From the sequence record PZ513997.1: a stretch of DNA of 40,530 bases, one strand, 5' to 3'. Source of the stretch: a phage. The notes under the pieces were generated by a model. The model was not told the origin of the DNA, searched no databases, and saw only the letters and a program-made list of their open reading frames with translations. Of this stretch, positions 1-40,530 are shown piece by piece (position 1 is the first letter of the stretch; each line of letters opens with the position of its first letter). Made by a program: the position numbers and the translations under genes.

Positions 1-1443
1 ATGTCACTTGTAAGTCTAGTACGCGACACTACTCAAGATATCAAGCACAAGGCAGATATTCTTCTTGATTATCTGGACCGCCAGGAGCAAGGCTTAGGTC
101 AGGTTCAGGAGTTTGTAGAATCCTCCACTATTCTGAATATCCCTTCTTTGCGTAGCTTACTACCTTCCTCCGAGGGTCAGGTGGTGCAAGTACTAAGTAG
201 TTACAGCACCGCCGCTACACAACTCCATTTAGGTGGTGGGCAGTTCCAAGCTGTTAATAACCTGCAAGCAGAGCCAGACGATGGCGGTATTGTAGTGCAC
301 AGTACGCATCCTACGCTGGTATGGAAACGCATTAACTTCACTGCTTATGATATGCAGTTCTGGGGTGTAGTAGCTGATGCAAGTACTGATAACGCAGCAG
401 CCATTACCCGCGCTACTCAGTACGCCCGGCGTAACCGAATTGTACTGGAAGCCCCCGCAGGCAGTATTCATACCAGTGAAATGGTCCCCCTGTACGATAA
501 CATGGGTATACGTGGGCATGGTCGCGCCGAGAATACAGTATTCTACAAGACCACTAACAACGGGTTCAACTACACCAAGAACGGGGTAACTGTCCTTACT
601 GTAGATGCGTTGGCTGGGTTTGTGCCTAAAGAGTGGGACCTCGCTGATTACGAGATAAAGAGTTTCTGTGTGCATGCACAGCTTATTGGCTGTATGTTCC
701 GCAGACTTGGCCTCAGTGCTGAGAACGTAGCCACAACTCGCCCACAGTACGGCCTGCATATCGGCAAGGCAGCTACAGCGGTCGTGCGTCAGTGTACATT
801 CGAAGGTGGTTACATTGGCATTAAGGGCTATAACGTATTCAGTAGCGTCTTCGAGAGTGTAGCAGCGGTGCAGTTCAATGGCTATGGCTATGCTGGTGTA
901 AGTATCAGCGACTACCGTAACAGCACTTTATACAACTCAGGTACATCACTGGACATGCGTATCGTGCAGGTACGTGGATACCAGTTCGGCTTTGAACTGG
1001 ACCGCCTGCAGTACAGTACCCTTATCGATTGTACAGCAGAAGAAATCGTCCCTATGGCTGGGGAAACCACAAGCTACGCCTTCAGTATGTACGACCCGTT
1101 CTGTATCACAATGCTGAACTGTGCTACCGAGTTCGTTAAGGGTGGACAGATTCGTGTACTAGGTTTCGCTAACCCTAGCTTCCGACCGCAGCTTAAAGTT
1201 ACCGGATTCATTGCTATAGACCAGCAGAACCCGGCTGCGCTTACTCCCATCTACCTTGTCGACAACGGGGGTACTACAGGTATGAACGTTGTTATAGAGG
1301 CATCTGAACTATCCAGAAACACTGCTCTGAGCAATAACGGGCAGCCGAGTGTACAAGGTGCAGGAGCTAAGGTAATCCTGATTGGATGCTCTGGAGAGGA
1401 CTGGGTAGCTTCTGGTAGTGGGGTATTCACTAGACTCGCTTAA
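1..1443 (+). CDS. tail spike-like receptor-binding protein, possible beta-helix polysaccharide depolymerase
   Basis: 480 aa ORF. C-terminal two thirds are rich in short G/N/V/I/S/T beta-strand-like segments (e.g. 'GYIGIKGYNVFSSVFESVAAVQFNGYGYAGVSISDY'), typical of parallel beta-helix tail spikes. Sits beside lysis and fibre genes. No T7 gp17-type N-terminal anchor domain. Assignment is by composition and context only. Confidence 0.4.
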   Translation: MSLVSLVRDTTQDIKHKADILLDYLDRQEQGLGQVQEFVESSTILNIPSLRSLLPSSEGQVVQVLSSYSTAATQLHLGGGQFQAVNNLQAEPDDGGIVVHSTHPTLVWKRINFTAYDMQFWGVVADASTDNAAAITRATQYARRNRIVLEAPAGSIHTSEMVPLYDNMGIRGHGRAENTVFYKTTNNGFNYTKNGVTVLTVDALAGFVPKEWDLADYEIKSFCVHAQLIGCMFRRLGLSAENVATTRPQYGLHIGKAATAVVRQCTFEGGYIGIKGYNVFSSVFESVAAVQFNGYGYAGVSISDYRNSTLYNSGTSLDMRIVQVRGYQFGFELDRLQYSTLIDCTAEEIVPMAGETTSYAFSMYDPFCITMLNCATEFVKGGQIRVLGFANPSFRPQLKVTGFIAIDQQNPAALTPIYLVDNGGTTGMNVVIEASELSRNTALSNNGQPSVQGAGAKVILIGCSGEDWVASGSGVFTRLA

Positions 1444-1983
1444 ATGCTATCGAATAAAATCAAGGCAGCGCTGGCAGGGTCTTCCCTGCTGGGCGCGAGC
1501 CTATTCGCAGTAATTGAAAGCAACGAAGGCTTATCCCTCACTGCTTACAAAGATTCCGCAGGCGTACCTACCATCTGCTATGGCGAGACTAAAGGCGTTA
1601 AAATGGGCCAAAAGGCTACGCTGTCGCAGTGTCAGGCCATGCTGATACAGTCAGCAGGGGAACACGCTAAGGCTCTTGACGGGCTTCCTATGCATCTTAC
1701 GGACGTACAGCTTCTGGGAGCCATAGACCTAACCTATAACATTGGGGTATCAGGTTTCAAGAACAGCACCGTGAAGCGCAAGCTAATGCAAGGGGATAAT
1801 AAAGGTGCTGCTCAGGCCGTACTAGCGTGGCGCTACATCACTGTTAAGGGTAAGAAGTACGATTGCTCAGTTAAGGCCAACAAGGTCTGCTACGGCCTCT
1901 GGAAGCGCCGTGTTTGGGAATCCCAAGCTATTGGCAATGAATTTAAATCAATGCAGGCAGCAGTAGCTGCTATGCCTAAATAA
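1444..1983 (+). CDS. SAR endolysin, T4-lysozyme-like muramidase (GH24)
   Basis: 179 aa. 'ESNEGLSLTAYKDSAGVPTICYGET' matches the T4 lysozyme catalytic region '[21 protein letters not shown]' with the same Glu-Asp-Thr spacing. The N-terminal Gly/Ala-rich weakly hydrophobic segment 'KIKAALAGSSLLGASLFAVI' directly precedes the catalytic Glu, as in signal-arrest-release endolysins (P1 Lyz, phiKMV gp45). Confidence 0.8.
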   Translation: MLSNKIKAALAGSSLLGASLFAVIESNEGLSLTAYKDSAGVPTICYGETKGVKMGQKATLSQCQAMLIQSAGEHAKALDGLPMHLTDVQLLGAIDLTYNIGVSGFKNSTVKRKLMQGDNKGAAQAVLAWRYITVKGKKYDCSVKANKVCYGLWKRRVWESQAIGNEFKSMQAAVAAMPK

Positions 1984-3084
1984 ATGAGTCTAATTAATCA
2001 GCGCCGTCGTATCTCTAAGGGTGGCAATACCGGCGGTGGTGGCGGTACTGGGCCACAAGGACCTGTAGGGGAGCAAGGCCCTGTAGGGCCTATGGGTCCG
2101 GCAGGTGCAGATGGCCCAGTAGGTCCAGTAGGTCCAGTCGGTCCACAAGGTCCTCAAGGCCCAGCTGGGCCTCAGGGTCCGCAAGGTCTGCAAGGTCCTG
2201 AAGGTGTTCAAGGAGCTAAGGGAGATAAGGGCGATACTGGTCCAGCGGGGCCAGCGGGTCTCAACTTCCGTGCTGCTTGGGTTCCGGGCTTGACCTATGC
2301 TTTACAGGATTCAGTAGCCTACAATGGTAGTACTTGGTTTGCTAATTCGGCTATTGAGGCAGACGTAACGCCCGGTACTGATCCTCGTTGGGTGCTGCTT
2401 GCTATGCAGGGTACTAAGGGGGATACCGGACCTACAGGTCCACAGGGGCCTCGCGGAGTGCAAGGCGTGCCCGGAGACGTAGGCCCTCAGGGTCCGCAGG
2501 GTATAGCAGGCCCGCAGGGTATTCGCGGTCCTCAAGGTGATACCGGCGAGCAAGGTCCCGCAGGGCCACAGGGCGCTAGAGGTATACAGGGAGTTAAAGG
2601 CGATAAAGGCGACAAGGGTGATAAAGGGGATACAGGCGCTACTGGACCCCAAGGACCCGCAGGTCAAAATAATACCAATAATCCAGTATATACTACACAA
2701 CTTGCAGTATCTACTAGCTATTCGGCAATAGCTATTCCTAATAACCCCGGAGTATCCTTAACGGTTAGACGTGTCAGCAATAATATTGAGTATTCATTTA
2801 CTGGTAACTCCATTGCGGGTAGGTACTTCGACGTAGAATTAGTTAACTTCCCCTCAGCGGACGTAGTCAAAAGGTATCAATCTAACCATACAATAGCAGG
2901 TACTAGCCGCTATGTAGTAGGCGACCCCGCAGGCTACACTGGTACAGGATACAAGAAGATTCAAATTACTGCAAGGGATTGGGGAGATAAGAATATTATT
3001 ATCATAGACCTGTTCCACCTACAACGAGCTGGGGATGCTAACTTCAACATCGCCATTAGGATTGAGACCTTTAAACTTCCTTAA
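1984..3084 (+). CDS. collagen-like (Gly-X-Y) repeat protein, probable tail fibre or fibre-associated protein
   Basis: 366 aa. Two long uninterrupted G-X-Y tracts ('[46 protein letters not shown]...' and '[52 protein letters not shown]...') followed by a non-repetitive C-terminal domain. Confidence 0.65.
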
Positions 3085-3684
3085 ATGGCGGTAGTAAGAA
3101 AGCAGCGTAGAGTTGACGGTAAGAAGCAGAACTACTATTGGGATACTGAATTATGTATTGAGGTAGCAGCTCCTGTAAGGAAAAAGCACTATAGCATAGC
3201 TAATCCTATGCAAGGCTTGATAGGTTACGCTGTGATGCACGATAGCGAGCTTAAACAAGGTATAACAGACGCGTTTGCTAACTTTAACGGTAGTCAGATG
3301 CGTAACGGTTTAACTGGTATCAGTATACCTAAGTTGATTGAGTTAGCAGATACACAACCAGAGCTATATAGTACTGAGCATCCAGAGAGTACTAACCATG
3401 CTGCGTATGATGCAGCGCTTACTATGCTTCTAGTATTAGTGCGTGAACGTATCCCTGAATGGGAAGAGGCGTACAGATATGATATGCATAATAGTGGGTT
3501 AAATATCGTTGATTTAATGTGTGAACAAGGCTATGACACTGATAACTATACCGGTGCTATAGCTAATAGTCTTAATCAGGTTTGGAGTGAAGGTAAGCTC
3601 TTAGTAGGCACTGAGGCTAACAAGCATTGGCTTAAATCTCAGGGATTTTCTAAACTGCGTTCCCAGCGTAATAGATACATTTGA
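3085..3684 (+). CDS. hypothetical protein (weak resemblance to DnaQ-like 3'-5' exonuclease motifs)
   Basis: 199 aa ORF. 'YYWDTEL' resembles an Exo I D-x-E motif and 'NHAAYDAALTML' resembles an H-x-A-x-x-D motif, but spacing is atypical. Weak. Confidence 0.3.
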   Translation: MAVVRKQRRVDGKKQNYYWDTELCIEVAAPVRKKHYSIANPMQGLIGYAVMHDSELKQGITDAFANFNGSQMRNGLTGISIPKLIELADTQPELYSTEHPESTNHAAYDAALTMLLVLVRERIPEWEEAYRYDMHNSGLNIVDLMCEQGYDTDNYTGAIANSLNQVWSEGKLLVGTEANKHWLKSQGFSKLRSQRNRYI

Positions 3685-3893: not shown

Positions 3894-4032
3894 TACATCA
3901 CACCACAACGAGGTAGGAAATAAAGAAGATGAACATTCAGAGCATGAACTTCCCGGTAATTATTAATTGTCTCTTAGCTTCTCATGTAATTCCCTCTGTA
4001 TAACCCGAGGACGCTACGTTACGCTCAGAACC

Positions 4033-4140
4033 TATTTATCTACCCCGATTCTTCAGGAGGGCAGCGGCTTATCGTTCCCGCTAACTTGCTGGCTAGTGCT
4101 CTGCTCCGTGCCTGCGCTTACCGTTACTCGGTTACTATTG
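4033..4140 (+). repeat. copy A of a roughly 100-bp repeated non-coding element (paired with 12950-13050)
   Basis: Roughly 75-80% identity to 12950-13050 by eye, including the shared 11-mer 'tttatctaccc' and core 'cttcagRagggcaRcSgcttatcgt'. Contains a 5-bp stem (agcgg/ccgct, 4063-4082) that is replaced by aaccg/cggtt in copy B, i.e. compensatory changes. Confidence 0.45.
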
Positions 4141-4332
4141 AAGCCTTACCAACCTGTACACGCACAATCATATCTTCTAGGCTGGACATGCAAGCTGTAC
4201 CGCTTTCGTAAGTACCTTCTTCCTTGCTAGATGGGACGTATATTTGGCACTACCTTTCTAATCGCCGCTACTATCTTTAACATTACACTGCCGTTTCTTG
4301 CTATCTATGGCTTAATCATGCTGTTCGCTTAA

Positions 4333-4572: not shown

Positions 4573-4701
4573 ATGAACGAATGGTATGAAGAGGCAATGC
4601 CGTGGCTTATCTGGGCCTTAGGCTTCCTGATTGTATATATGATTGCTAGTTACGCTGACGACGCTAAGATTGATTCTAAAGAGGAAGATAAAGATGCTTG
4701 A
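4573..4701 (+). CDS. small membrane protein (42 aa)
   Basis: Single hydrophobic helix 'PWLIWALGFLIVYMIASYA' followed by an acidic/lysine-rich tail. Junction shows 'atgaatga', consistent with an ATGA start/stop overlap that was duplicated. Confidence 0.3.
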   Translation: MNEWYEEAMPWLIWALGFLIVYMIASYADDAKIDSKEEDKDA

Positions 4702-6210: not shown

Positions 6211-6314
6211 ATGGACCTTAATACGGCTTGGCAGATGGTAATGTGGCCTGTATGCGTCGTAATAGCAATCATCCTGATAATCGCGACTGAAGTAGAGAAG
6301 AGGAACAAGAAATG

Positions 6315-6487
6315 AATGATTCAAGAGGATGATTTTGATACTTGGTATAACATTCACGTAAGGCACCGTGCTCGTGAGGAAGCTACTAGGAGGAAACTAG
6401 CAGCGCTTAATCGCGGGCACTCTGAGAAGTATGCTAAGAAGTTAGCTTCTGAAACTTACAACGAATACCTGACGAGGAACTTAAAAT
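6315..6487 (+). CDS. small early protein, paralogue 1
   Basis: 57 aa. C-terminal 'HSEKYAKKLASETYNEYLTRN' is clearly paralogous to 'HSEAHAKKLAQGIYSEYLKRY' in the adjacent ORF 6488-6649. Confidence 0.35.
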
Positions 6488-12825: not shown

Positions 12826-12949
12826 ATGCTTGCTGACGCTACTGACCGTTTCCGGTTGGCTCCCTGCCTCGTCGATGTGTGTACTATACGGAAAGCATCC
12901 CTGCTTGTCAACAGCTATTTATAAGTGTACGGGAGGAACCGTTCAGTCT

Positions 12950-13050
12950 CGTTTTATCTACCCAGAGACTTCAGAAGGGCAACCGCTTATCGTCCTCGGT
13001 TAACGTCTTGCTATGTGGCACATCTTACTTACTTCGTTACTGCTTGTCAA
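12950..13050 (+). repeat. copy B of the roughly 100-bp repeated non-coding element (paired with 4033-4140)
   Basis: See copy A. Lies in the 366-bp non-coding-looking island 12826-13191 downstream of the HNH gene. Stem aaccg/cggtt at 12981-13001. Confidence 0.45.
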
Positions 13051-13191
13051 TCTCTTTCTTAAATGATTCTTACTTTCATCTACTACCTCCTATTAATAAA
13101 GTTAAGGCTGCAATCTCTGAAGACTGCATCACTAACCCTACTTAAGTTAGCGAGTCTTATTTCTCCTAGACTCTCATCTGCATCACACTGA

Positions 13192-13380
13192 ATGAAAGTA
13201 AGAATCATCAATCACGATGCTTATGGTCCTTTCTTAACTGATACATGTAAGGAACTGTACGCAGTAGGTACAGTGCATGAAGTACAAGATTTCTTCCCTG
13301 ACACGGGGGAGGTTATCTTAGGGTATGAAGATGAAGGATTTACCTTTGATCCATCAGAGTATGAAGTTGTGGAGGAGTAG
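13192..13380 (+). CDS. small acidic hypothetical protein
   Basis: 62 aa, strongly acidic ('...FDPSEYEVVEE'). Immediately upstream of the pentapeptide-repeat gene. Confidence 0.35.
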   Translation: MKVRIINHDAYGPFLTDTCKELYAVGTVHEVQDFFPDTGEVILGYEDEGFTFDPSEYEVVEE

Positions 13381-13902
13381 ATGAACTATTTAGATATCTG
13401 CGAGAAGTACAATGTAGGAAGCCTGCGCGACGCTAACCTGCGCGACGCTGACCTGTACGGCGCTAACCTGTACGGCGCTGACCTGCGCGACGCTAACCTG
13501 TACGGCGCTAACCTGTGCGGCGCTGACCTGCGCGACGCTAACCTGTACGGCGCTAACCTGTGCGGCGCTGACCTGCGCGGCGCTAACCTGCGCGGCGCTA
13601 ACCTGCGCGGCGCTAACCTGTACGGCGCTAACCTGCGCGGCGCTAACCTGCGCCTAACCTGCGCGGCGCTAACCTGTACGGCGCTAACCTGCGCGGCGCT
13701 AACCTGCGCGGCGCTAACCTGTGCGGCGCTAACCTGTGCGGCGCTAACCTGCGCGGCGCTAACCTGCGCGGCGCTAACCTGTACGGCGCTAACCTGCGCG
13801 ACGCTAACCTGCGCGACGCTGACCTGTGCGGCGCTGACCTGCGCGACGCTGACCTGTGCGGCGCTAACCTGCGCGGCGCTGACCTGCATGGGACTGACTT
13901 GA
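13381..13902 (+). CDS. pentapeptide-repeat protein (Qnr/MfpA-type fold), reading frame disrupted
   Basis: First 90 codons encode perfect A(N/D)LxG pentapeptides ('[30 protein letters not shown]...'). At 13651-13661 one 15-nt unit is 11 nt, shifting the called frame into 'LTCAALTC...'. The pentapeptide frame continues to a TAG at 13935-13937 ('...[19 protein letters not shown]'). Confidence 0.6.
13426..13886 (+). repeat. 15-bp tandem repeat array (about 31 units, one truncated to 11 bp)
   Basis: Units of form 'cgcgRcgctRacctg', head to tail with no spacers. This is the coding repeat of the pentapeptide-repeat gene. Truncated unit at 13651-13661. Confidence 0.85.
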
Positions 13903-35500: not shown

Positions 35501-36294
35501 ATGACAACTTAGACCTTACCCGTAGTTCTCGCTGGTTCAACATTACGCAGAACATCGGTCAGGCTGCACGTCACGTAAACGGTATGGGTCTGGTGCATCG
35601 TCTTCAGACTAACGTTAACGCAGGTATCGTAATGGACGAGCTTAAGCTCATGCTGAACGGCGATGCAGAAGCTACTAAGCGTTTACAGCGTTGGGGTCTT
35701 GACCCTGAACTTGCTAAGCGTATGCAAGCTGCTGCTAGTCCTGATGTAGATGCTTTACTGCCAGATGACTTACAGCTTCAGCTAGAGATTATTGGTACTC
35801 GTCTAATGGATCATGTTATCCAGCAGATTCGTGTAGGTGAGACTTCTCACTTTGCACAGTTCAGTCCAGTAGGTCGCGTAGTAGTTGGTTACGGTAGCTT
35901 TGCTGTAGCTGGTACTAACAAGATTCTACGTCGTGAGTACCGTGATAACGGCTGGATTGGCTTAGCACACCTTGCTGCGTATCAGTTCCCTTTGATGTAC
36001 CTTATTACTCAAGCACGTTTATCTGCTGATGGTAGGAAGGAATCAGAAGGTAAGATTATTGCAGAGGCTGTTAAAGCTATGAGCATCCTAGGCGGGTTCA
36101 GCTTCGTAACTGGTATCTTCGACGATCAAACCCCTAAACATAGCCTGACCGCTACTGGTTATGCTATGAACATCTTAGGCCTGATTCAGAAGGTAGCGGC
36201 AGGTGAAGCAGGCCTTAAAGACGTGTCCCGCAGCCTCCCGCTGTTGCAGGAGTTCATGCCGACCCGTGCAATCATTAATAACTTTGGAGATTAA
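32524..36294 (+). CDS. internal virion protein, gp16-like (ejection/core protein)
   Basis: 1256 aa, largest ORF, immediately before the tail fibre gene, as for T7 gp16 (1318 aa). No lytic transglycosylase motif recognised by eye. Confidence 0.6.
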   Translation: MAQFLNQEANPAIKDSAKGDTLVEVQQPQETVRWNDATDLGASALERASLTAQAKTPAVTAGESFMAGVGNSIVAASLRKAFSPDFPTDTSFKPIEMLQKDNRTRIYTPNQEEIEYLQGSVSLEDYNYRIEQMLEQRERDQTAGANLISGIAGSVIGDAPTLLAPFAAAGVAGRAGLAVRSAIRAADVGSAYYAQDQLGQSEGITALVAAVSGVDQLFDIRKAVNARRAVQRTVAGATEDVADTAANNAVDASTGTTRGSTRTEMQFDEAAPTKRTAPDSDAFTTKIDSLESTPLKKPIRILKGQQARVSVRASDVTKNLLARDVLDEGQKALLRSLDGIIDDVPVHLVGDTNISSRYNLANNAVTLRASKKGPRTWNTYGDAINGLDSNTAKIAVHELIHAATVRAIQSGTPEALEATANLTRIREQLLTSPNLNARMRYSLSSNEELLAGLADDKGLVNLLRNTEVEGASAIRRIAQTILKALGAKVEGNALNAVLDSYDALLDVAAKERGVTRYKSQAFSEYGEFADTANGAVKQLDTFKKTFARSFSLYDNIAEGSKELADLLVSDGAAVGARRPSVADYKRNLQLELDGAASVVEKAIVDSLRADGIGLLDAFLQRNKFKAARRERESKLAQYLDQAYSAETAGREIPTPPQDIAPLVKAYVDSEWATKWYDHLQKSGLVEVDSQIKRSPYYFPRSYSYDAIRQQINTGARQASDYRDLFRQALRDIYPDMTAEVAGRVAREMFESIYNGKSKQTGPAWRSILGGVGNEVIVDAMRAAGVADDQIRNFLTTNVAREATQTSRVKNLRTRNRFDLQKEYVVNGQAMRMADILDTDVAKQMQGYTNRVSGRVAFAYAGVTDLNALEGMINAAKSTVRDPDRYQKHVDDTIDFMVGAPVQGSEVPEIFRAAGNLANATVLKNSGLYQLADTALAMKEFGMARVLRSMKKEKWWKEATAVAKDASQSARLDSILRGSIQKELRFRWLNSYADDNLDLTRSSRWFNITQNIGQAARHVNGMGLVHRLQTNVNAGIVMDELKLMLNGDAEATKRLQRWGLDPELAKRMQAAASPDVDALLPDDLQLQLEIIGTRLMDHVIQQIRVGETSHFAQFSPVGRVVVGYGSFAVAGTNKILRREYRDNGWIGLAHLAAYQFPLMYLITQARLSADGRKESEGKIIAEAVKAMSILGGFSFVTGIFDDQTPKHSLTATGYAMNILGLIQKVAAGEAGLKDVSRSLPLLQEFMPTRAIINNFGD

Positions 36295-37503
36295 ATGGCT
36301 TACAGCTGGCAAGAACAACGCTTGCCAGCGGGAAGTCAGACCGTACCTGTAGAGATTCAGTACCTTGACCGCTCGTACATTCATTTGTACATCAACGAGG
36401 TTGAGGTTACTGACTTTACATGGGGTAGTGATACGCTTATCCGGTTTGACCAAACGCTGGCAGAAGAGTCTACTGTACTACTAGTTCGCCGCACCCCGCG
36501 CGAATACCTGTACCTTATGTTCTCTGAGGGCGCTGCCTTTATTAAAGAGAACTTGGATACACAGAATCGTCAGTTCCTGCATTTAGCTCAGGAGCTTGTA
36601 GAAGGCCGTTCTGTTGACGGTTTCTTCGGTAACATTGATATGAACGGCTATCGGATTGTTAACCTGCGCGCAGGCGAGCAACCGGGGGATGCTGTTAATA
36701 AGGGCCAGTTGGATGCTGAAGCTTTGAGAATATCTGCGTTAGAGAACACATTCGTCTCTCAGACTAATTCTTATCCGTGGTATACTACTGCCACAGAACC
36801 TACAGATATACTTACACCTCCGCTAGTCTTTAATAAAGCATCTGTGTATATTAATGGAGTATGTCAGACCCCAGGCTACAGTTATGAAGTAGTAGCTAAT
36901 ACTATTATGCTGGCTGACCCTATTCCGGCAGGTACACACGTATTTGCACGTTTAGGTGAGGATGTTACGGACCTAGTACCTGACTATGCTACAGGCAGCC
37001 AACTACAGGCAGTAGCCCAACGTACTACGCTAGTAGAAGAAGATATGCAGACTGTGCAAGCATCTATGAATAGTTTGCAATCTGACGTTACTTCTTTAGA
37101 CACCTCTAAGGCGGCTAAAGGTGATGCAGGGCTTGCTCAGTTAGGAGCTACGGCTGTAGGGTCTGCTGTATTTAAAGCAGCTTCACAGGTAGATGCTAGA
37201 GCTGCTATCGGCGCTAATAGCTCACTAAGCCAACAGGCCCAGCAGACTTTTAGAGATGCAGCCACTGGTTTTACTATTAAGATGGGAGTACTCCCAGCTT
37301 CGCTGACTTCCCCTTACACGGTAACATTTGATATTCCGTTTACTGCCTTATTTCAAGTGCAGCTTACAGGCGGCCCTACTACTGGGGAAAGTGCTACAGG
37401 TAACGCGCAGGTTAGTGCACTAGCAGCATCCTCGTTTACCTGTAAAGCAGCAGCAGTAGCAGAGCTACAAGGCTGCTATTGGGTAGCGTATGGTACCAGT
37501 TAA
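36295..37503 (+). CDS. tail fibre protein, T7 gp17 N-terminal-domain-like
   Basis: 402 aa. N-terminal region 'VPVEIQYLDRSYIHLYINEVEVTDFTWGSDTLIRF' follows the pattern of the T7 gp17 tail-attachment domain. Shorter than T7 gp17. Confidence 0.65.
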   Translation: MAYSWQEQRLPAGSQTVPVEIQYLDRSYIHLYINEVEVTDFTWGSDTLIRFDQTLAEESTVLLVRRTPREYLYLMFSEGAAFIKENLDTQNRQFLHLAQELVEGRSVDGFFGNIDMNGYRIVNLRAGEQPGDAVNKGQLDAEALRISALENTFVSQTNSYPWYTTATEPTDILTPPLVFNKASVYINGVCQTPGYSYEVVANTIMLADPIPAGTHVFARLGEDVTDLVPDYATGSQLQAVAQRTTLVEEDMQTVQASMNSLQSDVTSLDTSKAAKGDAGLAQLGATAVGSAVFKAASQVDARAAIGANSSLSQQAQQTFRDAATGFTIKMGVLPASLTSPYTVTFDIPFTALFQVQLTGGPTTGESATGNAQVSALAASSFTCKAAAVAELQGCYWVAYGTS

Positions 37504-37803
37504 ATGGCTAAGGCGGCTACAAAGAGTCGCCTCGCTGAACTGCATAAGATGTTCACCGAGGCACTCATTTCAGAATTACAGCAGGCTAAGGATGAAGAGC
37601 TTCCTATGCCTGCGGCAGATAAATCAGTTATCGCTAACTTCCTAAAGGCTAATAACATTACAGCCGATGCAGACTCTACAGAGATGCAAGAGCTACGTGA
37701 TGAGTTCCAAGATGAGTTGGCAGAGAAACGTAAAGCACGGGCACAGGAACTGTTAGCGAAAGCTGGTGCAGACCCCGAAGACCCATTAGCAGGCATCTTA
37801 TAA
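37504..37803 (+). CDS. terminase small subunit, T7 gp18-like
   Basis: 99 aa, helical and acidic, directly upstream of the large terminase. Confidence 0.5.
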   Translation: MAKAATKSRLAELHKMFTEALISELQQAKDEELPMPAADKSVIANFLKANNITADADSTEMQELRDEFQDELAEKRKARAQELLAKAGADPEDPLAGIL

Positions 37804-39516
37804 ATGATGGCTGTCACTCTAAAGGACTTCCGAGAGTTCGCATACTTAGGTATGAAGTTCCTCGGCTTTGACCTTACGGAGATGCAGCGCGATATAGCTG
37901 ACTTCATGCAGCACGGTCCGCGTAAGCGCATGGTGGCCGCACAGCGTGGCGAGGCTAAGTCTACACTCGCAGCTCTCTATGCAGTCTGGCGCCTGATTCA
38001 GGACCAGAGCACGCGTATTCTTATTGTATCCGGTGGTGAGAAGCAGGCATCTGAAGTAGCTACGCTTGTTATCCGTATGATTGAAACGTGGCCTTTACTG
38101 TGCTACCTCAAGGCTGATAGTACTCGCGGTGACCGTACCTCTTATGAGGGTTACGATGTTCACTGCGACCTGAAGCCTTTGGATAAATCTGCCAGCATCG
38201 CGTGCGTAGGTATTACCGCACAGCTTCAGGGTAAGCGTGCTGACCTGCTAATCCCAGATGATATTGAGACTACTAAGAACGGCTTAACGCAGACTATGCG
38301 TGAGCAGTTGCTTAGCATCTCTAAAGACTTTGCAGCAATCTGTACGCACGGTGATACCTTGTATCTTGGCACGCCTCAGACTAAGGACAGTATCTACAAG
38401 ACGCTTACGGGTCGTGGCTTCGAGGTTCGTGTATGGCCCGGTCGTATCCCTAATCAGGAGATGCGCGAGCGTTACGGAGAAACCCTAGCCCCGTATATTC
38501 AAACCCTCATCGACGCAGGGTACAAAGAGACAGGCTTCGGGTTAGATGGTACGTTAGGTGAATGCACCGATAAAGGACGCTATAACGAGGAAGCCTTGAT
38601 TGAGAAGGAACTGGACTTCGGCCCAGAAGGGTTCCAATTACAGTATATGCTCGACACAACCATGTCCGATGCACTGCGTACCAAGATTAAACTCAGTGAC
38701 GCTTTGATTTACACTGGCTCGCATGATGCAGCGCCTGACCGACTGAACTACATGGCTGATAAGCGCTATCTCTACGGAGAGGAACATGAGGGTATTCGAG
38801 GTCAGCAGTTGTATGTGCCGAGTCACGTAGGTGAGCACATGCTCAACTATAAGCACAAGCTGCTGGTACTTGACCCTGCTGGTAACGGTGGTGATGAAGT
38901 ATCCTTTGCAGCTGGTGGTGCAGTCAGCTCTTACATCCATCTCTTTAGTGTAGGTGGTTTGCAAGGCGGGCTTAGCACAGAGAACGTAGATACCTTAATT
39001 GACCTAGCGGTCGAGATGGGTATTACTGATATCTTCGTCGAGCGTAACATGGGTCACGGCACGGTAGAATCTTTGATTATAAACCGTCTACGTGAACGTA
39101 GTATGCCCGGCATTGGTGTCAGGGGCGGTTATAACACGTCTCAGAAAGAGAAACGTATCATTGATACTATCTCCCCTGTTACGCGTCGTCACCGCTTTGT
39201 AGTGCACGCTAGGGCGCTGGAAGACGATATCAAGTACTGTATGCAGTACAGTCGTGATAAGCGCTGGCTTTACAGTGCGTTCCAGCAGTTATCCGGTATT
39301 ACTTATGACCGTGGTAGCCTGGCGAAGGATGACCGGGCAGACGCTATTAGTATGCTCGTAGCTGAACTGAACTCGCACCTCGTAGAGGATGAGAAGCAGG
39401 CAGCAGAGAAGGACCAGCTTAAGAAGGCGTTAGACTTTATGGATAACCCTATGGGCTGGAAGAAGTCAATGGTACAGAAGCGCAAGCGCGGTGCAAGCGC
39501 ACGTATCGGTTATTAA
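37804..39516 (+). CDS. terminase large subunit, T7 gp19-like
   Basis: 570 aa (T7 gp19 is 586 aa). Walker A-like 'AAQRGEAKSTLAAL'. Last large gene of the structural block. Confidence 0.8.
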   Translation: MMAVTLKDFREFAYLGMKFLGFDLTEMQRDIADFMQHGPRKRMVAAQRGEAKSTLAALYAVWRLIQDQSTRILIVSGGEKQASEVATLVIRMIETWPLLCYLKADSTRGDRTSYEGYDVHCDLKPLDKSASIACVGITAQLQGKRADLLIPDDIETTKNGLTQTMREQLLSISKDFAAICTHGDTLYLGTPQTKDSIYKTLTGRGFEVRVWPGRIPNQEMRERYGETLAPYIQTLIDAGYKETGFGLDGTLGECTDKGRYNEEALIEKELDFGPEGFQLQYMLDTTMSDALRTKIKLSDALIYTGSHDAAPDRLNYMADKRYLYGEEHEGIRGQQLYVPSHVGEHMLNYKHKLLVLDPAGNGGDEVSFAAGGAVSSYIHLFSVGGLQGGLSTENVDTLIDLAVEMGITDIFVERNMGHGTVESLIINRLRERSMPGIGVRGGYNTSQKEKRIIDTISPVTRRHRFVVHARALEDDIKYCMQYSRDKRWLYSAFQQLSGITYDRGSLAKDDRADAISMLVAELNSHLVEDEKQAAEKDQLKKALDFMDNPMGWKKSMVQKRKRGASARIGY

Positions 39517-39699
39517 ATGGCAATTGCAGCAGCAACTTTGGCACAGAAGACTGAACTTCAACGTCAACTGAATATTCTGGCTAAGGACATTTACCAGATT
39601 CTTACCCAGCCTTTGGATGCAGTGTCAGTAGGCCCGACCTTTGATGCTAAGATTCCGGCACTAGAAGCAGCTATCGCAGCTGTTAAAGCAGCAGCATAA
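39517..39699 (+). CDS. hypothetical protein
   Basis: 60 aa, Ala-rich helical ORF. Confidence 0.3.
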   Translation: MAIAAATLAQKTELQRQLNILAKDIYQILTQPLDAVSVGPTFDAKIPALEAAIAAVKAAA

Positions 39700-40098
39700 A
39701 TGATTCGTGCAGCCGCTGGGTTAGTACTCGTTACGGCGCTTACAGGATGCTCAGCGGCTTCTGCACTATCAGGATTAGTCGGCACTAAGCCAGACCTGAC
39801 AGTGCAGGCTGGGGCTGAGAATACTAAGCAGACCGTAGGTTTGAACAGTAGATCCGACTCCAGCACGGATACAACAATCAAAGATTCCAATGTAGGTACT
39901 CTAGACACTTCTACAAAGAAGCAGTCAGTTACTACTGGAACTATCAATACAGAGCGTGTACAGGTTGTTAATAATGACAGTACAAGCATTATACTAGCAG
40001 GGTTGGCGGGTGCAGCGGTTCCAATCGCAATCCTCATCATTATCCTGCTTTTCCGCAAGCTCGGAAGGAAGGGTGACGTAGATGAGTCTACCAATTAG
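39700..40098 (+). CDS. outer-membrane lipoprotein with C-terminal transmembrane helix; candidate unimolecular spanin
   Basis: 132 aa. N-terminus 'MIRAAAGLVLVTALTGC' is a lipoprotein signal with lipobox L-T-G-C. Ser/Thr-rich middle region, then a hydrophobic helix 'LAGLAGAAVPIAILIIILLF' and basic tail 'RKLGRKGD'. Topology and size match phage T1 gp11-type u-spanins. Confidence 0.5.
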   Translation: MIRAAAGLVLVTALTGCSAASALSGLVGTKPDLTVQAGAENTKQTVGLNSRSDSSTDTTIKDSNVGTLDTSTKKQSVTTGTINTERVQVVNNDSTSIILAGLAGAAVPIAILIIILLFRKLGRKGDVDESTN

Positions 40099-40284
40099 AT
40101 GGGTGGTGGATGGGTGGCTGATATCATGTCTTGGCAATGGGGCACTATCTCTTTTATTGTAGGTACTGTAGTAGCGGTACTAACGTTTCTTTGGAATGCC
40201 TACTATAAACGCAAGGAGTACTTGCTGAAAGAGAAAGCATTACAGAAAGGCTTAGAGTACTACGAGTTCAAGAATAAACCATAA
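40099..40284 (+). CDS. small membrane protein, holin or pinholin candidate
   Basis: 61 aa. One clear hydrophobic helix 'ISFIVGTVVAVLTFLW' followed by a highly charged C-terminus. Adjacent to the spanin candidate. Confidence 0.4.
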   Translation: MGGGWVADIMSWQWGTISFIVGTVVAVLTFLWNAYYKRKEYLLKEKALQKGLEYYEFKNKP

Positions 40285-40530
40285 ATGACTAGGTACGGAG
40301 CAGGTGCACACACTTTTCGATTTGGGAGTGGTGCACGGGACAGGATTGTAGTACCAGATGCAGGTACTACTGTAACGGTAGAGTACTGGTCTGGTACAGA
40401 GTGGGTTATGGACGTAGATTCACCAATTGACTCTCCAGCTACACTTTATACGCGGCTTGTACGTGTCCGCTTAACTGCGGATGGCGGCTTCTCCTTTGAT
40501 GTAGTGGAGGCTATTGATGAGTCTAATTAA
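40285..40530 (+). CDS. hypothetical protein
   Basis: 81 aa ORF ending at the last base of the window with TAA. Confidence 0.3.
   Translation: MTRYGAGAHTFRFGSGARDRIVVPDAGTTVTVEYWSGTEWVMDVDSPIDSPATLYTRLVRVRLTADGGFSFDVVEAIDESN

Follow-up and report, generated by a model that had tools for sequence, protein, structure and literature searches.

The lysis genes considered here most closely resemble those of the KP34-like phages (Drulisvirus/Slopekvirinae), which carry a cassette consisting of (i) a unimolecular spanin (u-spanin), (ii) a holin of ~83 aa that has been read as a pinholin, and (iii) a SAR endolysin (Eriksson et al. 2015, PMC4411677). The same u-spanin/holin/SAR endolysin cassette has been reported for the PhiM1-like phages (PMC6115819), and the u-spanins of KP34 and phiKDA1 belong to the T1 gp11 family, which is associated with pinholin/SAR systems (Kongari et al. 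2018, PMC6139136). The pinholin/SAR pathway itself has been reviewed (PMC9636201).

The stretch of DNA analysed (the window; 40,530 nt) very likely carries, judging by its sequence, the lysis genes of a KP34-type podovirus, PAS7: a u-spanin, a pinholin and a SAR endolysin, in a concatenated arrangement. The source of the 64 predicted coding sequences in the window is Escherichia phage vB_EcoP_PAS7 (OQ921331.1, Slopekvirinae), to which the window pieces correspond almost base for base (one piece has one mismatch); identities below 100% are due to gaps. The PAS7 genome has already been published, and its lysis genes are not discussed in the PAS7 paper.

Comparison with OQ921331.1 revealed that the window lacks the features of a natural segment (intergenic DNA, overlaps, and native order and strand). 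The 64 ORFs stand head to tail and tile all 40,530 nt exactly, with zero intergenic bases. Four pieces are reverse-complemented relative to the record, and the last three native genes of PAS7 stand first in the window, in reversed order: window positions 1–1443, 1444–1983 and 1984–3084 equate to record positions 40579–42021, 40030–40569 and 38918–40018, respectively. Derivation from some other natural genome with the order tail spike, endolysin, fibre was rejected; the only high-identity match is PAS7, where that order is reversed. Artificially strung together from gene calls, the window is not natural contiguous DNA, and so inferences drawn from its gene order, intergenic signals or start codons are unreliable.

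The initial annotation had described the lysis genes as dispersed in the order membrane ORF, 81-aa ORF, tail spike, endolysin. This order does occur in the window, read across its ends, but not in the native record, which gives u-spanin, holin, 81-aa ORF, collagen-like fibre, endolysin, tail spike. Since the tail spike natively follows the endolysin, it does not separate the endolysin from the holin, as had been proposed. The lysis genes are nonetheless split in PAS7; the genes that split them are the 81-aa ORF and the collagen-like fibre gene. Setting this split aside, PAS7 and the KP34-like phages share the three protein families, their order and the overlapping of genes, and in both the cassette lies between the large terminase and the tail spike. 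The PAS7 holin is ~54% identical to Drulisvirus proteins. Relative to the seven relatives examined (Minorna, P64441, SU503, phiKDA1, KKP 3828, Peggy and the LM 4-11-1 contig), PAS7 alone has the intervening DNA.

That DNA is a two-gene, 1.39-kb insertion with breakpoints at record positions 38657 and 40048, and on either side of it there appears to be a copy of ~25 nt from the ancestral holin/endolysin overlap. The first gene (40285–40530, plus strand) encodes a soluble, 81-aa protein of PHROG_8454 (unknown function), with other homologues in the phage collection found only in Vibrio and Shewanella phages. The second (1984–3084, plus strand; between the 81-aa ORF and the endolysin in the record) encodes a 366-aa, collagen-like fibre protein that matches Pfam Collagen (8e-23) and the tail fibre family PHROG_5073 (2e-62), and is ~66% identical to collagen-repeat/tail-fibre proteins of the E. 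coli phages UDF157lw, MM01 and Phagiculus. The insertion is absent from all seven relatives, in each of which the holin gene directly abuts or overlaps the endolysin gene. Spanin, holin, endolysin and tail spike are syntenic in six of the seven, and the LM 4-11-1 contig has the first three genes; the step from endolysin to tail spike (480 aa; 1–1443, plus strand) is shared between PAS7 and relatives. Ancestrally, the genes overlap and run spanin, holin, endolysin, tail spike; PAS7 has gained the insertion. PAS7 shows that a fibre-gene insertion can part overlapping holin and endolysin genes with all parts left intact, the overlap being apparently duplicated.

Pattern scans of the native DNA between holin and endolysin found no convincing terminator-like site (one weak plus-strand match lies inside the holin gene), and located a 12-pair hairpin past the tail spike, at 42061–42088. 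A sigma-70 promoter scan of the native region returned no more sites than shuffled controls. All of these genes, from the spanin to the tail spike, probably belong to one late transcript.

The endolysin gene (1444–1983, plus strand; WMX18831.1) is 100% identical to the PAS7 record and encodes a T4/P21-type lysozyme of 179 aa. The protein matches Pfam family PF00959 (Phage_lysozyme; E=1.8e-26, 93.4 bits against a cut-off of 22.3), the endolysin family PHROG_7 (1.1e-43), and PDB entries 7M5I, 3HDE and 4ZPU. Alignment with 3HDE—the solved SAR endolysin of phage 21—has an E-value of 6e-16 and begins at residue 5, meaning that the match takes in the N-terminal segment. Here, residues 6–24 (IKAALAGSSLLGASLFAVI; 1459–1515, plus strand), preceded by K5 and K7, match the P21 enzyme's SAR domain column for column. 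Their Kyte-Doolittle mean is 1.74, with 53% Gly/Ala/Ser/Thr; the P21 SAR window has values of 2.11 and 63%. The PAS7 segment contains no cysteine. The catalytic triad region, E28-(8 aa)-D37-(5 aa)-T43 (1525–1572, plus strand), follows directly and has the general spacing Glu-8aa-Asp/Cys-5aa-Thr. E28, D37 and T43 are invariant in an alignment of PAS7, P64441, Minorna, LM 4-11-1 and the P21 enzyme, and their columns face the EGVSYIPYKDIVGVWT motif of the last; the PAS7 protein is 65% identical to the Minorna endolysin. The PF00959 match, the 3HDE alignment, the invariant triad and the SAR-like composition bear out the original observation of a T4-lysozyme catalytic motif immediately after a SAR segment.

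Any Sec signal, of course, has a basic n-region and then a hydrophobic core, as this N-terminus does, and the SAR domain of T4 RI has been reassigned to a cleaved signal peptide (PMC9636201). The endolysin N-terminus could, by analogy, be cleaved off as an ordinary signal peptide or anchor the protein permanently, with no releasable SAR domain. We consider this improbable: no small-x-small peptidase site could be read from the sequence after the hydrophobic core, the catalytic Glu28 lies only four residues past that core, the core is 53% G/A/S/T, and the segment aligns with a SAR domain that is kept in the solved, full-length P21 enzyme. By every sequence criterion tested, the endolysin is classed as a SAR endolysin, for which the expected partner would be a pinholin.

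The pinholin-type partner that had been anticipated is predicted to be the product of 40099–40284 (plus strand). This call is 5'-truncated: it corresponds to residues 22–82 of a native, 82-aa ORF (record 38427–38675, WMX18828.1). Both forms exceed the curated cut-off (26 bits) of PF04971, the family to which the holin S of phage 21 belongs (window form 30.6, native form 32.5), with native residues 15–65 placed on positions 8–62 of the 64-position profile; there is also a match to the holin family PHROG_20 (4.7e-18). A comparison of the holin family with the single S21 sequence by hhalign gave a probability of only 73%, over residues 26–63 only, and so we relied instead on Pfam and on a bridging homologue from phage Peggy. 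The Peggy holin scores 46.2 bits against PF04971 (profile positions 5–59) and is aligned with S21 over both helices by BLASTP (E=4e-6). An NCBIfam search gave zero matches to holin models, and its matches for the endolysin and spanin were all sub-threshold. Taken on these profile and sequence matches, the 82-aa protein is assigned, as a predicted holin, to the phage 21 S family (class II pinholins).

The truncation accounts for an earlier doubt, namely that the partner was uncertain because the 61-aa membrane protein showed one TM helix. The 61-aa window ORF begins at Met22 of the ORF annotated in the record, and 46 nt (record 38444–38489) are missing from the window, the blast junction running from 38443 to 38490. 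A remnant of the native start, consisting of the ATG and 14 further nt (MSLPI...), persists at 40082–40098 (plus strand), inside the spanin gene at its 3' end; the 46 absent nt have put it out of frame with position 40099, and the window ORF that it opens (40082–40162) reads MSLPIRWVV.... The native start lies 63 nt upstream of Met22, giving a 17-nt overlap with the spanin gene. All 13 metagenomic homologues are 82–86 aa long, and 12 of them start MSLPI or MGLPI. In 257 of 265 phage matches, 80% or more of the 82-aa query is covered, and almost all of the matches listed start at residues 4–8. The holin loci of the seven relatives encode 81–83 aa from a conserved upstream ATG that overlaps the spanin gene, and the long form is carried by the records of all six annotated relatives. 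A purine-rich, Shine-Dalgarno-like stretch is found ~5–12 nt before the upstream ATG in PAS7 and most relatives, and is weak in P64441.

Could the 61-aa product nevertheless be genuine, either as the sole product or as the effector of an unusual dual-start pair with the 82-aa form as antiholin? PAS7 and 12 of 13 close homologues have Met22, it was the start chosen by the gene caller, and S21 truncations that lack the N-terminal half of TMD1 still make pores (bioRxiv 10.1101/2021.04.20.440580). However, no Shine-Dalgarno-like sequence lies 5–10 nt before Met22 (the closest AGG is ~14 nt upstream). Further, in four of the seven relatives the equivalent codon is GTC or GTA (Drulisvirus) or ACT or ACG (Koutsourovirus), none of which is a start codon. 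Met22 was rejected as a conserved alternative start on the identity of these codons and the absent ribosome-binding site. Every annotated relative uses the upstream ATG, among them Minorna, whose record has ribosome-binding sites marked, and the 21 codons upstream of Met22 are conserved at the protein level. We thus hold a genuine Met22 product to be very improbable, and the 61-aa, single-helix holin to be, on the comparative evidence, a truncation introduced by annotation.

The 21 residues lost from the window form include the greater part of an N-terminal segment that is weakly hydrophobic and rich in Gly/Ala, and that is assigned by alignment as a putative homologue of TMD1 of the phage 21 pinholin S. 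What remains in the 61-aa ORF is TMD2 only: a strongly hydrophobic helix at 40138–40194 (plus strand; WGTISFIVGTVVAVLTFLW, Kyte-Doolittle mean 1.86). The protein ends in a charged C-terminal tail (residues 58–82, KRKEYLLKEKALQKGLEYYEFKNKP). Segment 13–31 has a Kyte-Doolittle mean of 0.91, as compared with 0.64 for the TMD1 region of S21. The segment is also short (the stretch separating R12 from D29 has 16 uncharged residues), and its insertion comes out as unfavourable on a Hessa-type scale (summed energy ~+8.9 versus +6.4 for S21). The AlphaFold model of P0001, 99% identical to the PAS7 holin, has helices at residues 7–31 and 35–70; its mean pLDDT is only 63, with 53–60 over the N-terminal helix, and given this low confidence we take it as weak support only. 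Neither a Met-Lys-x-Met dual-start motif nor a second Met near the N-terminus is present in the holin. The dual-start motif is not universal among holins.

These properties raise the question of whether the N-terminal segment ever enters the membrane. Holins of the KP34/PAS7 type might be natural single-pass proteins (N-out, C-in) that resemble S21 minus TMD1, the segment never inserting; lysis timing would, in this case, be set by expression level or some other factor, uninvolved with TMD1 release. Consistent with such a topology are the single strongly hydrophobic window, the mere 16 residues from R12 to D29, the one TMD obtained by TOPCONS for the 83-aa KP34-like holins (PMC4411677), and S21 truncation work in which TMD2 alone can form pores, though transient ones (bioRxiv 10.1101/2021.04.20.440580). 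On the other hand, the family keeps this N-terminal segment in both sequence and length, the Kyte-Doolittle scale makes it no less hydrophobic than the S21 TMD1 region (hydrophobicity windows miss the TMD1 of S21 too), and in the Peggy homologue a run of ~24 uncharged residues aligns to S21 TMD1. A single-pass topology is unlikely, and we grade the part concerning timing in the same way. We prefer a two-helix reading, in which the native ORF would supply the Gly/Ala-rich equivalent of TMD1.

Hole type is a separate matter. SAR endolysins also work with canonical holins, and so sequence alone does not fix hole size. In some phages, namely P1 (PMC9025707) and N4 (bioRxiv 10.1101/2025.11.12.688109), the partner of the SAR endolysin is reportedly a holin other than a pinholin. 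The PAS7 holin could, similarly, make large, non-specific holes of the canonical type, with the SAR endolysin using any depolarisation and 'pinholin' being a misnomer; hole size is not readable from sequence. Against this stand the shared PF04971 membership with S21 and the small or polar TMD2 residues S39, G43, A47, T50 and N54, which are invariant or nearly so in close homologues. These align with G40, S44, G48, T51 and N55 of S21, residues that we take to face helix-packing surfaces or the lumen. Large holes thus seem rather unlikely, and a pinholin, with small channels (~2 nm) that would not let a cytoplasmic endolysin through, remains our preferred reading.

Three other small membrane ORFs, at 4231–4332, 4573–4701 and 6211–6315, had been put forward as holin candidates. 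Each does contain one strongly hydrophobic window (Kyte-Doolittle means 1.85–2.56). However, a PF04971 holin already occupies the conserved cassette position, none of the three matches a PHROG at E<=0.001, and the best Pfam match (E=0.03) is far under the curated cut-offs; with nothing meaningful from Pfam or PHROGs, all three were rejected. They map to record positions 1273–3589—within a group of small genes that precedes the DNA-replication genes, a long way from the late genes—in what is presumably the early region, and 4231–4332 is unannotated in the PAS7 record. That one of them is the true holin is barely conceivable.

The third lysis gene, at 39700–40098 (plus strand), encodes a 132-aa protein that matches the Rz-like spanin family PHROG_1804 (6.8e-40). 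Its N-terminus, LVLVTALTG-C17-S, carries a lipobox (LTGC; 39739–39750, plus strand) with a non-Asp residue at +2. A C-terminal TMD is encoded at ~39988–40050 (plus strand; residues 97–115, Kyte-Doolittle mean 2.83). Cys17 is the sole cysteine, leaving none in the periplasmic part, a criterion taken from PMC6139136. The Minorna orthologue is annotated 'unimolecular spanin'. In its sequence features, the protein fits a putative unimolecular spanin of the T1 gp11 type, which it resembles in the LTGC lipobox, the C-terminal TMD, the lack of periplasmic cysteine, and the association with pinholin/SAR genes; its placement in the T1 gp11 family comes by way of the KP34 and phiKDA1 orthologues. Adjoining the spanin gene upstream is a conserved, 60-aa ORF with no TM helix (39517–39699, plus strand; PHROG_7375, 1.6e-25), which is syntenic in Minorna, P64441, SU503, phiKDA1, KKP 3828 and Peggy.

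Comparison with the phage 21 system (S21 68/71 and R21) shows likenesses in both partners: the holin falls in PF04971, and the endolysin is homologous, with a SAR domain and the E/D/T triad. The SAR segment is cysteine-free in PAS7 as well. Differences are that (i) PAS7 lacks Met-Lys-x-Met, (ii) its TMD1-like segment has seven fewer residues and is flanked by R12 and D29, and (iii) its spanin is unimolecular, in contrast to Rz/Rz1, with the spanin gene first. PhiKMV, like PAS7 an RNA-polymerase-encoding podovirus, combines a pinholin (KMV44) with a SAR endolysin (KMV45) (Briers et al. 2011, as cited in PMC4411677). The phiKMV genes run holin, endolysin, Rz, Rz1, and the spanin has two components, in both of which phiKMV differs from PAS7; the similarity between the phiKMV and KP34 cassettes is reported as ~30% over 22% coverage (PMC4411677).

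Together, the three predicted proteins suggest the following course of lysis. The 179-aa endolysin would be exported by Sec, with the weakly hydrophobic SAR helix holding the enzyme inactive in the inner membrane, while the 82-aa holin builds up in the same membrane. Upon holin triggering, TMD2 would form small channels, and the proton-motive force would collapse. The SAR helix could then exit the bilayer, the enzyme refolding as the P21 enzyme does—without a cysteine switch—and degrading the murein. Finally, the 132-aa spanin, with its lipoprotein N-terminus in the outer membrane and its C-terminal helix in the inner membrane, would disrupt the outer membrane.

The lysis strategy of PAS7 is one already known from KP34-like phages, and in this respect the finding is an ordinary one; with the combination of u-spanin, P21-type pinholin and SAR endolysin already described, it carries little biological weight. 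It does allow WMX18828.1, a 'hypothetical protein' in the PAS7 record, to be reannotated as a phage 21 S-family holin. A more speculative and rather doubtful idea is that the shortened, Arg/Asp-bracketed segment no longer inserts in the KP34/PAS7 branch, making these holins constitutively 'TMD1-out' relatives of S21; if true, lysis timing in the branch would be set by means other than TMD1 release. Finally, PAS7 provides an example of receptor-binding-type genes inserted within a lysis cassette.

Rather than a naturally occurring piece of DNA, the window is a string of joined-up gene calls. An ORF listing and a frame-1 walk show that 64 ORFs tile all 40,530 nt exactly, with zero spacer bases; each starts with ATG, GTG or TTG, and each stop directly abuts the next start. 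Megablast gives the source as Escherichia phage vB_EcoP_PAS7 (hereafter PAS7; OQ921331.1, 42,514 bp; Autographiviridae, Slopekvirinae). Piece-by-piece comparison with this native record revealed essentially no mismatch (a single one, in one piece), the sub-100% identities being due to gaps. All PAS7 intergenic DNA is missing from the window, PAS7 gene overlaps are present twice, and four pieces are reverse-complemented (3967–4230, 12826–12924, 12925–13062 and 13063–13193). The final three native genes open the window in reversed order: (i) the tail spike (window 1–1443; record 40579–42021), (ii) the endolysin (window 1444–1983; record 40030–40569), and (iii) a collagen-like fibre (window 1984–3084; record 38918–40018). 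The calls come from a different caller than those of the GenBank annotation. In such a concatenate the order and spacing of the genes, like their start codons, are therefore unreliable at face value, and first-stage findings resting on order, spacing, promoters or terminators are affected.

Separately, window 13422–13887 contains a 15-nt unit, CCTGCGCGGCGCTAA, in ~31 tandem copies. The + frame of the array encodes pentapeptide repeats that switch to LTCAA repeats mid-array, as if by a 1-nt frame change within it; the GenBank call on the opposite strand, 'modular polyketide synthase', looks doubtful.

The native order overturns one claim of the initial annotation, namely that the tail spike lies between holin and endolysin: natively, the endolysin precedes the tail spike. 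In the six annotated relatives (Minorna, P64441, SU503, phiKDA1, KKP 3828 and Peggy) the order is 60-aa ORF, unimolecular spanin (u-spanin), holin, endolysin, tail spike, with the holin overlapping both neighbours; the holin ORF also overlaps the endolysin ORF in a seventh, unannotated relative, the LM 4-11-1 contig. PAS7 is collinear with these relatives up to record position 38657 and again from 40048; the intervening distance is 1.39 kb in PAS7 versus ~16 nt in the relatives. Hence, the reported dispersal of the lysis genes is an artefact as far as the tail spike is concerned, while a two-gene insertion does split them in PAS7. As a side observation, several contigs deposited as 'Listeria phage LM ...' (UNVERIFIED_ORG; H5, H6, H17, H19, H30, H35) carry the enterobacterial Slopekvirinae lysis cassette at ~80% identity; their stated host is almost certainly wrong.

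The insert carries two genes (native 38686–40018), an 81-aa ORF (window 40285–40530), which otherwise has homologues in the phage collection only among Vibrio and Shewanella phages, and the collagen-like fibre. The latter has a weak CBM_5_12 match and shares ~66% identity with proteins from the E. coli phages UDF157lw, MM01 and Phagiculus; over its C-terminal half it shares ~71% with side tail fibres from phages W70 and A73. Both genes look laterally acquired, and the fibre may be a second receptor-binding protein, one not treated in the PAS7 paper. The holin stop and endolysin start both lie within the ancestral overlap "ACTATGAGCATAAGCAACAAGGTTAA", diverged copies of which seem to flank the insert (native 38640–38675 and 40020–40060); in the left copy, the alignment reads the endolysin ATG as ACG. 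In a consensus scan of the native DNA, the holin–endolysin interval yielded no convincing terminator-like site; the sole + strand match there (38553–38572, three G-C pairs) falls within the holin gene. The same scan found a 12-pair terminator-like hairpin just after the tail spike (record 42061–42088), lost from the window along with the other intergenic DNA. The whole block is probably co-transcribed. The hairpin sits in a stretch conserved with P64441 (42071–42163).

The 179-aa product of window 1444–1983 matches Pfam Phage_lysozyme (E=1.8e-26), the PHROG_7 endolysin (1.1e-43) and, in a search of solved structures, the signal-arrest-release (SAR) endolysin of phage 21 (P21 enzyme; 3HDE, E=6e-16), the last alignment beginning at residue 5, within the N-terminal hydrophobic segment. 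Over residues 6–24 (IKAALAGSSLLGASLFAVI), hydropathy averages 1.74 on the Kyte-Doolittle scale and Gly/Ala/Ser/Thr make up 53%, against 2.11 and 63% for the P21 SAR window. Two lysines precede the segment, and no small-x-small peptidase site is found in the sequence after the hydrophobic core. The catalytic Glu stands four residues beyond that core, and E28, D37 and T43, canonically spaced by 8 and 5 residues, are invariant in an alignment of PAS7, three relatives and the P21 enzyme. The initial annotation's T4-lysozyme-type motif straight after a SAR segment is thus borne out, and at the sequence level the predicted SAR-type lysozyme is confirmed; the protein would be exported and then released from the membrane. 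The P21 enzyme activates by refolding, and the P1 enzyme by a disulfide switch. The SAR segment contains no cysteine, which fits P21-type refolding and not the P1-type switch.

The holin partner, previously considered uncertain, can now be assigned. Window ORF 40099–40284 (61 aa) matches PF04971 (phage 21 holin S) at 30.6 bits, above the curated cut-off of 26, and covers only profile positions 22–62 of 64. The native gene (record 38427–38675), which shares 17 nt with the spanin gene, encodes 82 aa (WMX18828.1, annotated "hypothetical protein"; MSLPISGDTITRVGAQAAAATMGGGWVADIMSWQWGTISFIVGTVVAVLTFLWNAYYKRKEYLLKEKALQKGLEYYEFKNKP); this form scores 32.5 bits, with residues 15–65 on profile positions 8–62, and matches the PHROG_20 holin at 4.7e-18. 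The window piece begins at record 38490, at Met22, with 46 nt lost; the first 17 nt of the gene, ATG included, are kept at window 40082–40098 in the spanin 3' end, where they are out of frame and open a 26-aa ORF ("MSLPIRWVV...").

Comparative evidence points to the upstream ATG as the real holin start. With the 82-aa query, tblastn alignments cover at least 80% of it in 257 of 265 matching phage genomes, beginning at residues 4–8 in nearly all matches listed. All 13 homologues in a large protein collection are 82–86 aa long, and 12 begin MSLPI or MGLPI. An ORF of 81–83 aa opens from the spanin-overlapping ATG in 7/7 relatives' loci, and the long form is carried in all six annotated records, with annotated ribosome-binding sites in Minorna. 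A purine-rich, Shine-Dalgarno-like stretch lies ~5–12 nt before this ATG in PAS7 (GGAAGGAAGGG, then 8 nt) and most relatives, and is weak in P64441. Met22 was rejected as a start: no such element lies within 5–10 nt of its codon, and the equivalent codon is a non-start one in four relatives (GTC or GTA in two Drulisvirus phages, ACT or ACG in two Koutsourovirus phages). Given PF04971 membership and the restored start, the predicted partner of the endolysin is a phage 21 S-family protein. A further start-codon mismatch between window and record is seen in the large terminase (window 37804–39516), called at 570 aa versus 607 aa in GenBank (36022–37845).

Restoring the start also bears on the earlier count of only one transmembrane helix, which was made on a call starting at Met22. 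The restored segment V13–M31 is Gly/Ala-rich, with a Kyte-Doolittle mean of 0.91 versus 0.64 for the first transmembrane helix (TMD1) region of the phage 21 pinholin S21, which simple hydrophobicity windows likewise miss. In the more distant Peggy homologue, an uncharged stretch (LTAMAYGSSGGAAVTGWLGTVM) aligns with S21 TMD1; this protein matches S21 across both helices (BLASTP, E=4e-6) and PF04971 at 46.2 bits (profile positions 5–59). The PAS7 TMD1-like segment is short (16 uncharged residues, R12 to D29), and TOPCONS predicted a single TMD in the 83-aa KP34-like holins (PMC4411677). An AlphaFold model of P0001, a homologue with 99% identity to the PAS7 holin, has helices at 7–31 and 35–70, with pLDDT of only 53–60 over the first. 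S21 truncations indicate that the second helix can by itself form pores of a transient kind, with the N-terminus setting their timing and stabilising them (bioRxiv 10.1101/2021.04.20.440580). The degenerate, TMD1-like segment may still span the membrane and be released as in S21, and this applies across the KP34 branch, not to PAS7 alone.

Three other small membrane ORFs (4231–4332, 4573–4701 and 6211–6315), each with one hydrophobic helix, had been suggested for checking as holins. None has a PHROG at E<=0.001 or a Pfam match better than E=0.03, far below curated cut-offs. They map to record 1273–3589, in a group of small genes that precedes the replication genes and is probably the early region; 4231–4332 has no annotation in the record. 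Lacking a PHROG or Pfam match at these levels and lying far from the late genes, they were rejected as holins.

The remaining cassette gene, window 39700–40098, encodes a 132-aa u-spanin. Its lipoprotein signal (lipobox LTGC, then Ser) holds the protein's sole cysteine, and its C-terminal helix is strongly hydrophobic (Kyte-Doolittle 2.83). The protein matches PHROG_1804 (6.8e-40), and the Minorna record labels the orthologue "unimolecular spanin". The KP34 and phiKDA1 spanins belong to the T1 gp11 family, nearly all members of which lie within pinholin/SAR endolysin cassettes (Kongari et al., PMC6139136). Directly upstream is a 60-aa soluble ORF (window 39517–39699; PHROG_7375, function not assigned), which adjoins the u-spanin in PAS7 and all six annotated relatives.

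KP34-like viruses were described in 2015 as having a u-spanin, an ~83-aa holin and a SAR endolysin in the same order, a cassette that was read as a pinholin system (PMC4411677) and was described again in PhiM1-like phages (PMC6115819); lysis genes are not a topic of the PAS7 paper. The original puzzle was largely a product of a truncated gene call and an artificial gene order, and the PAS7 cassette is one more member of a known lysis system.
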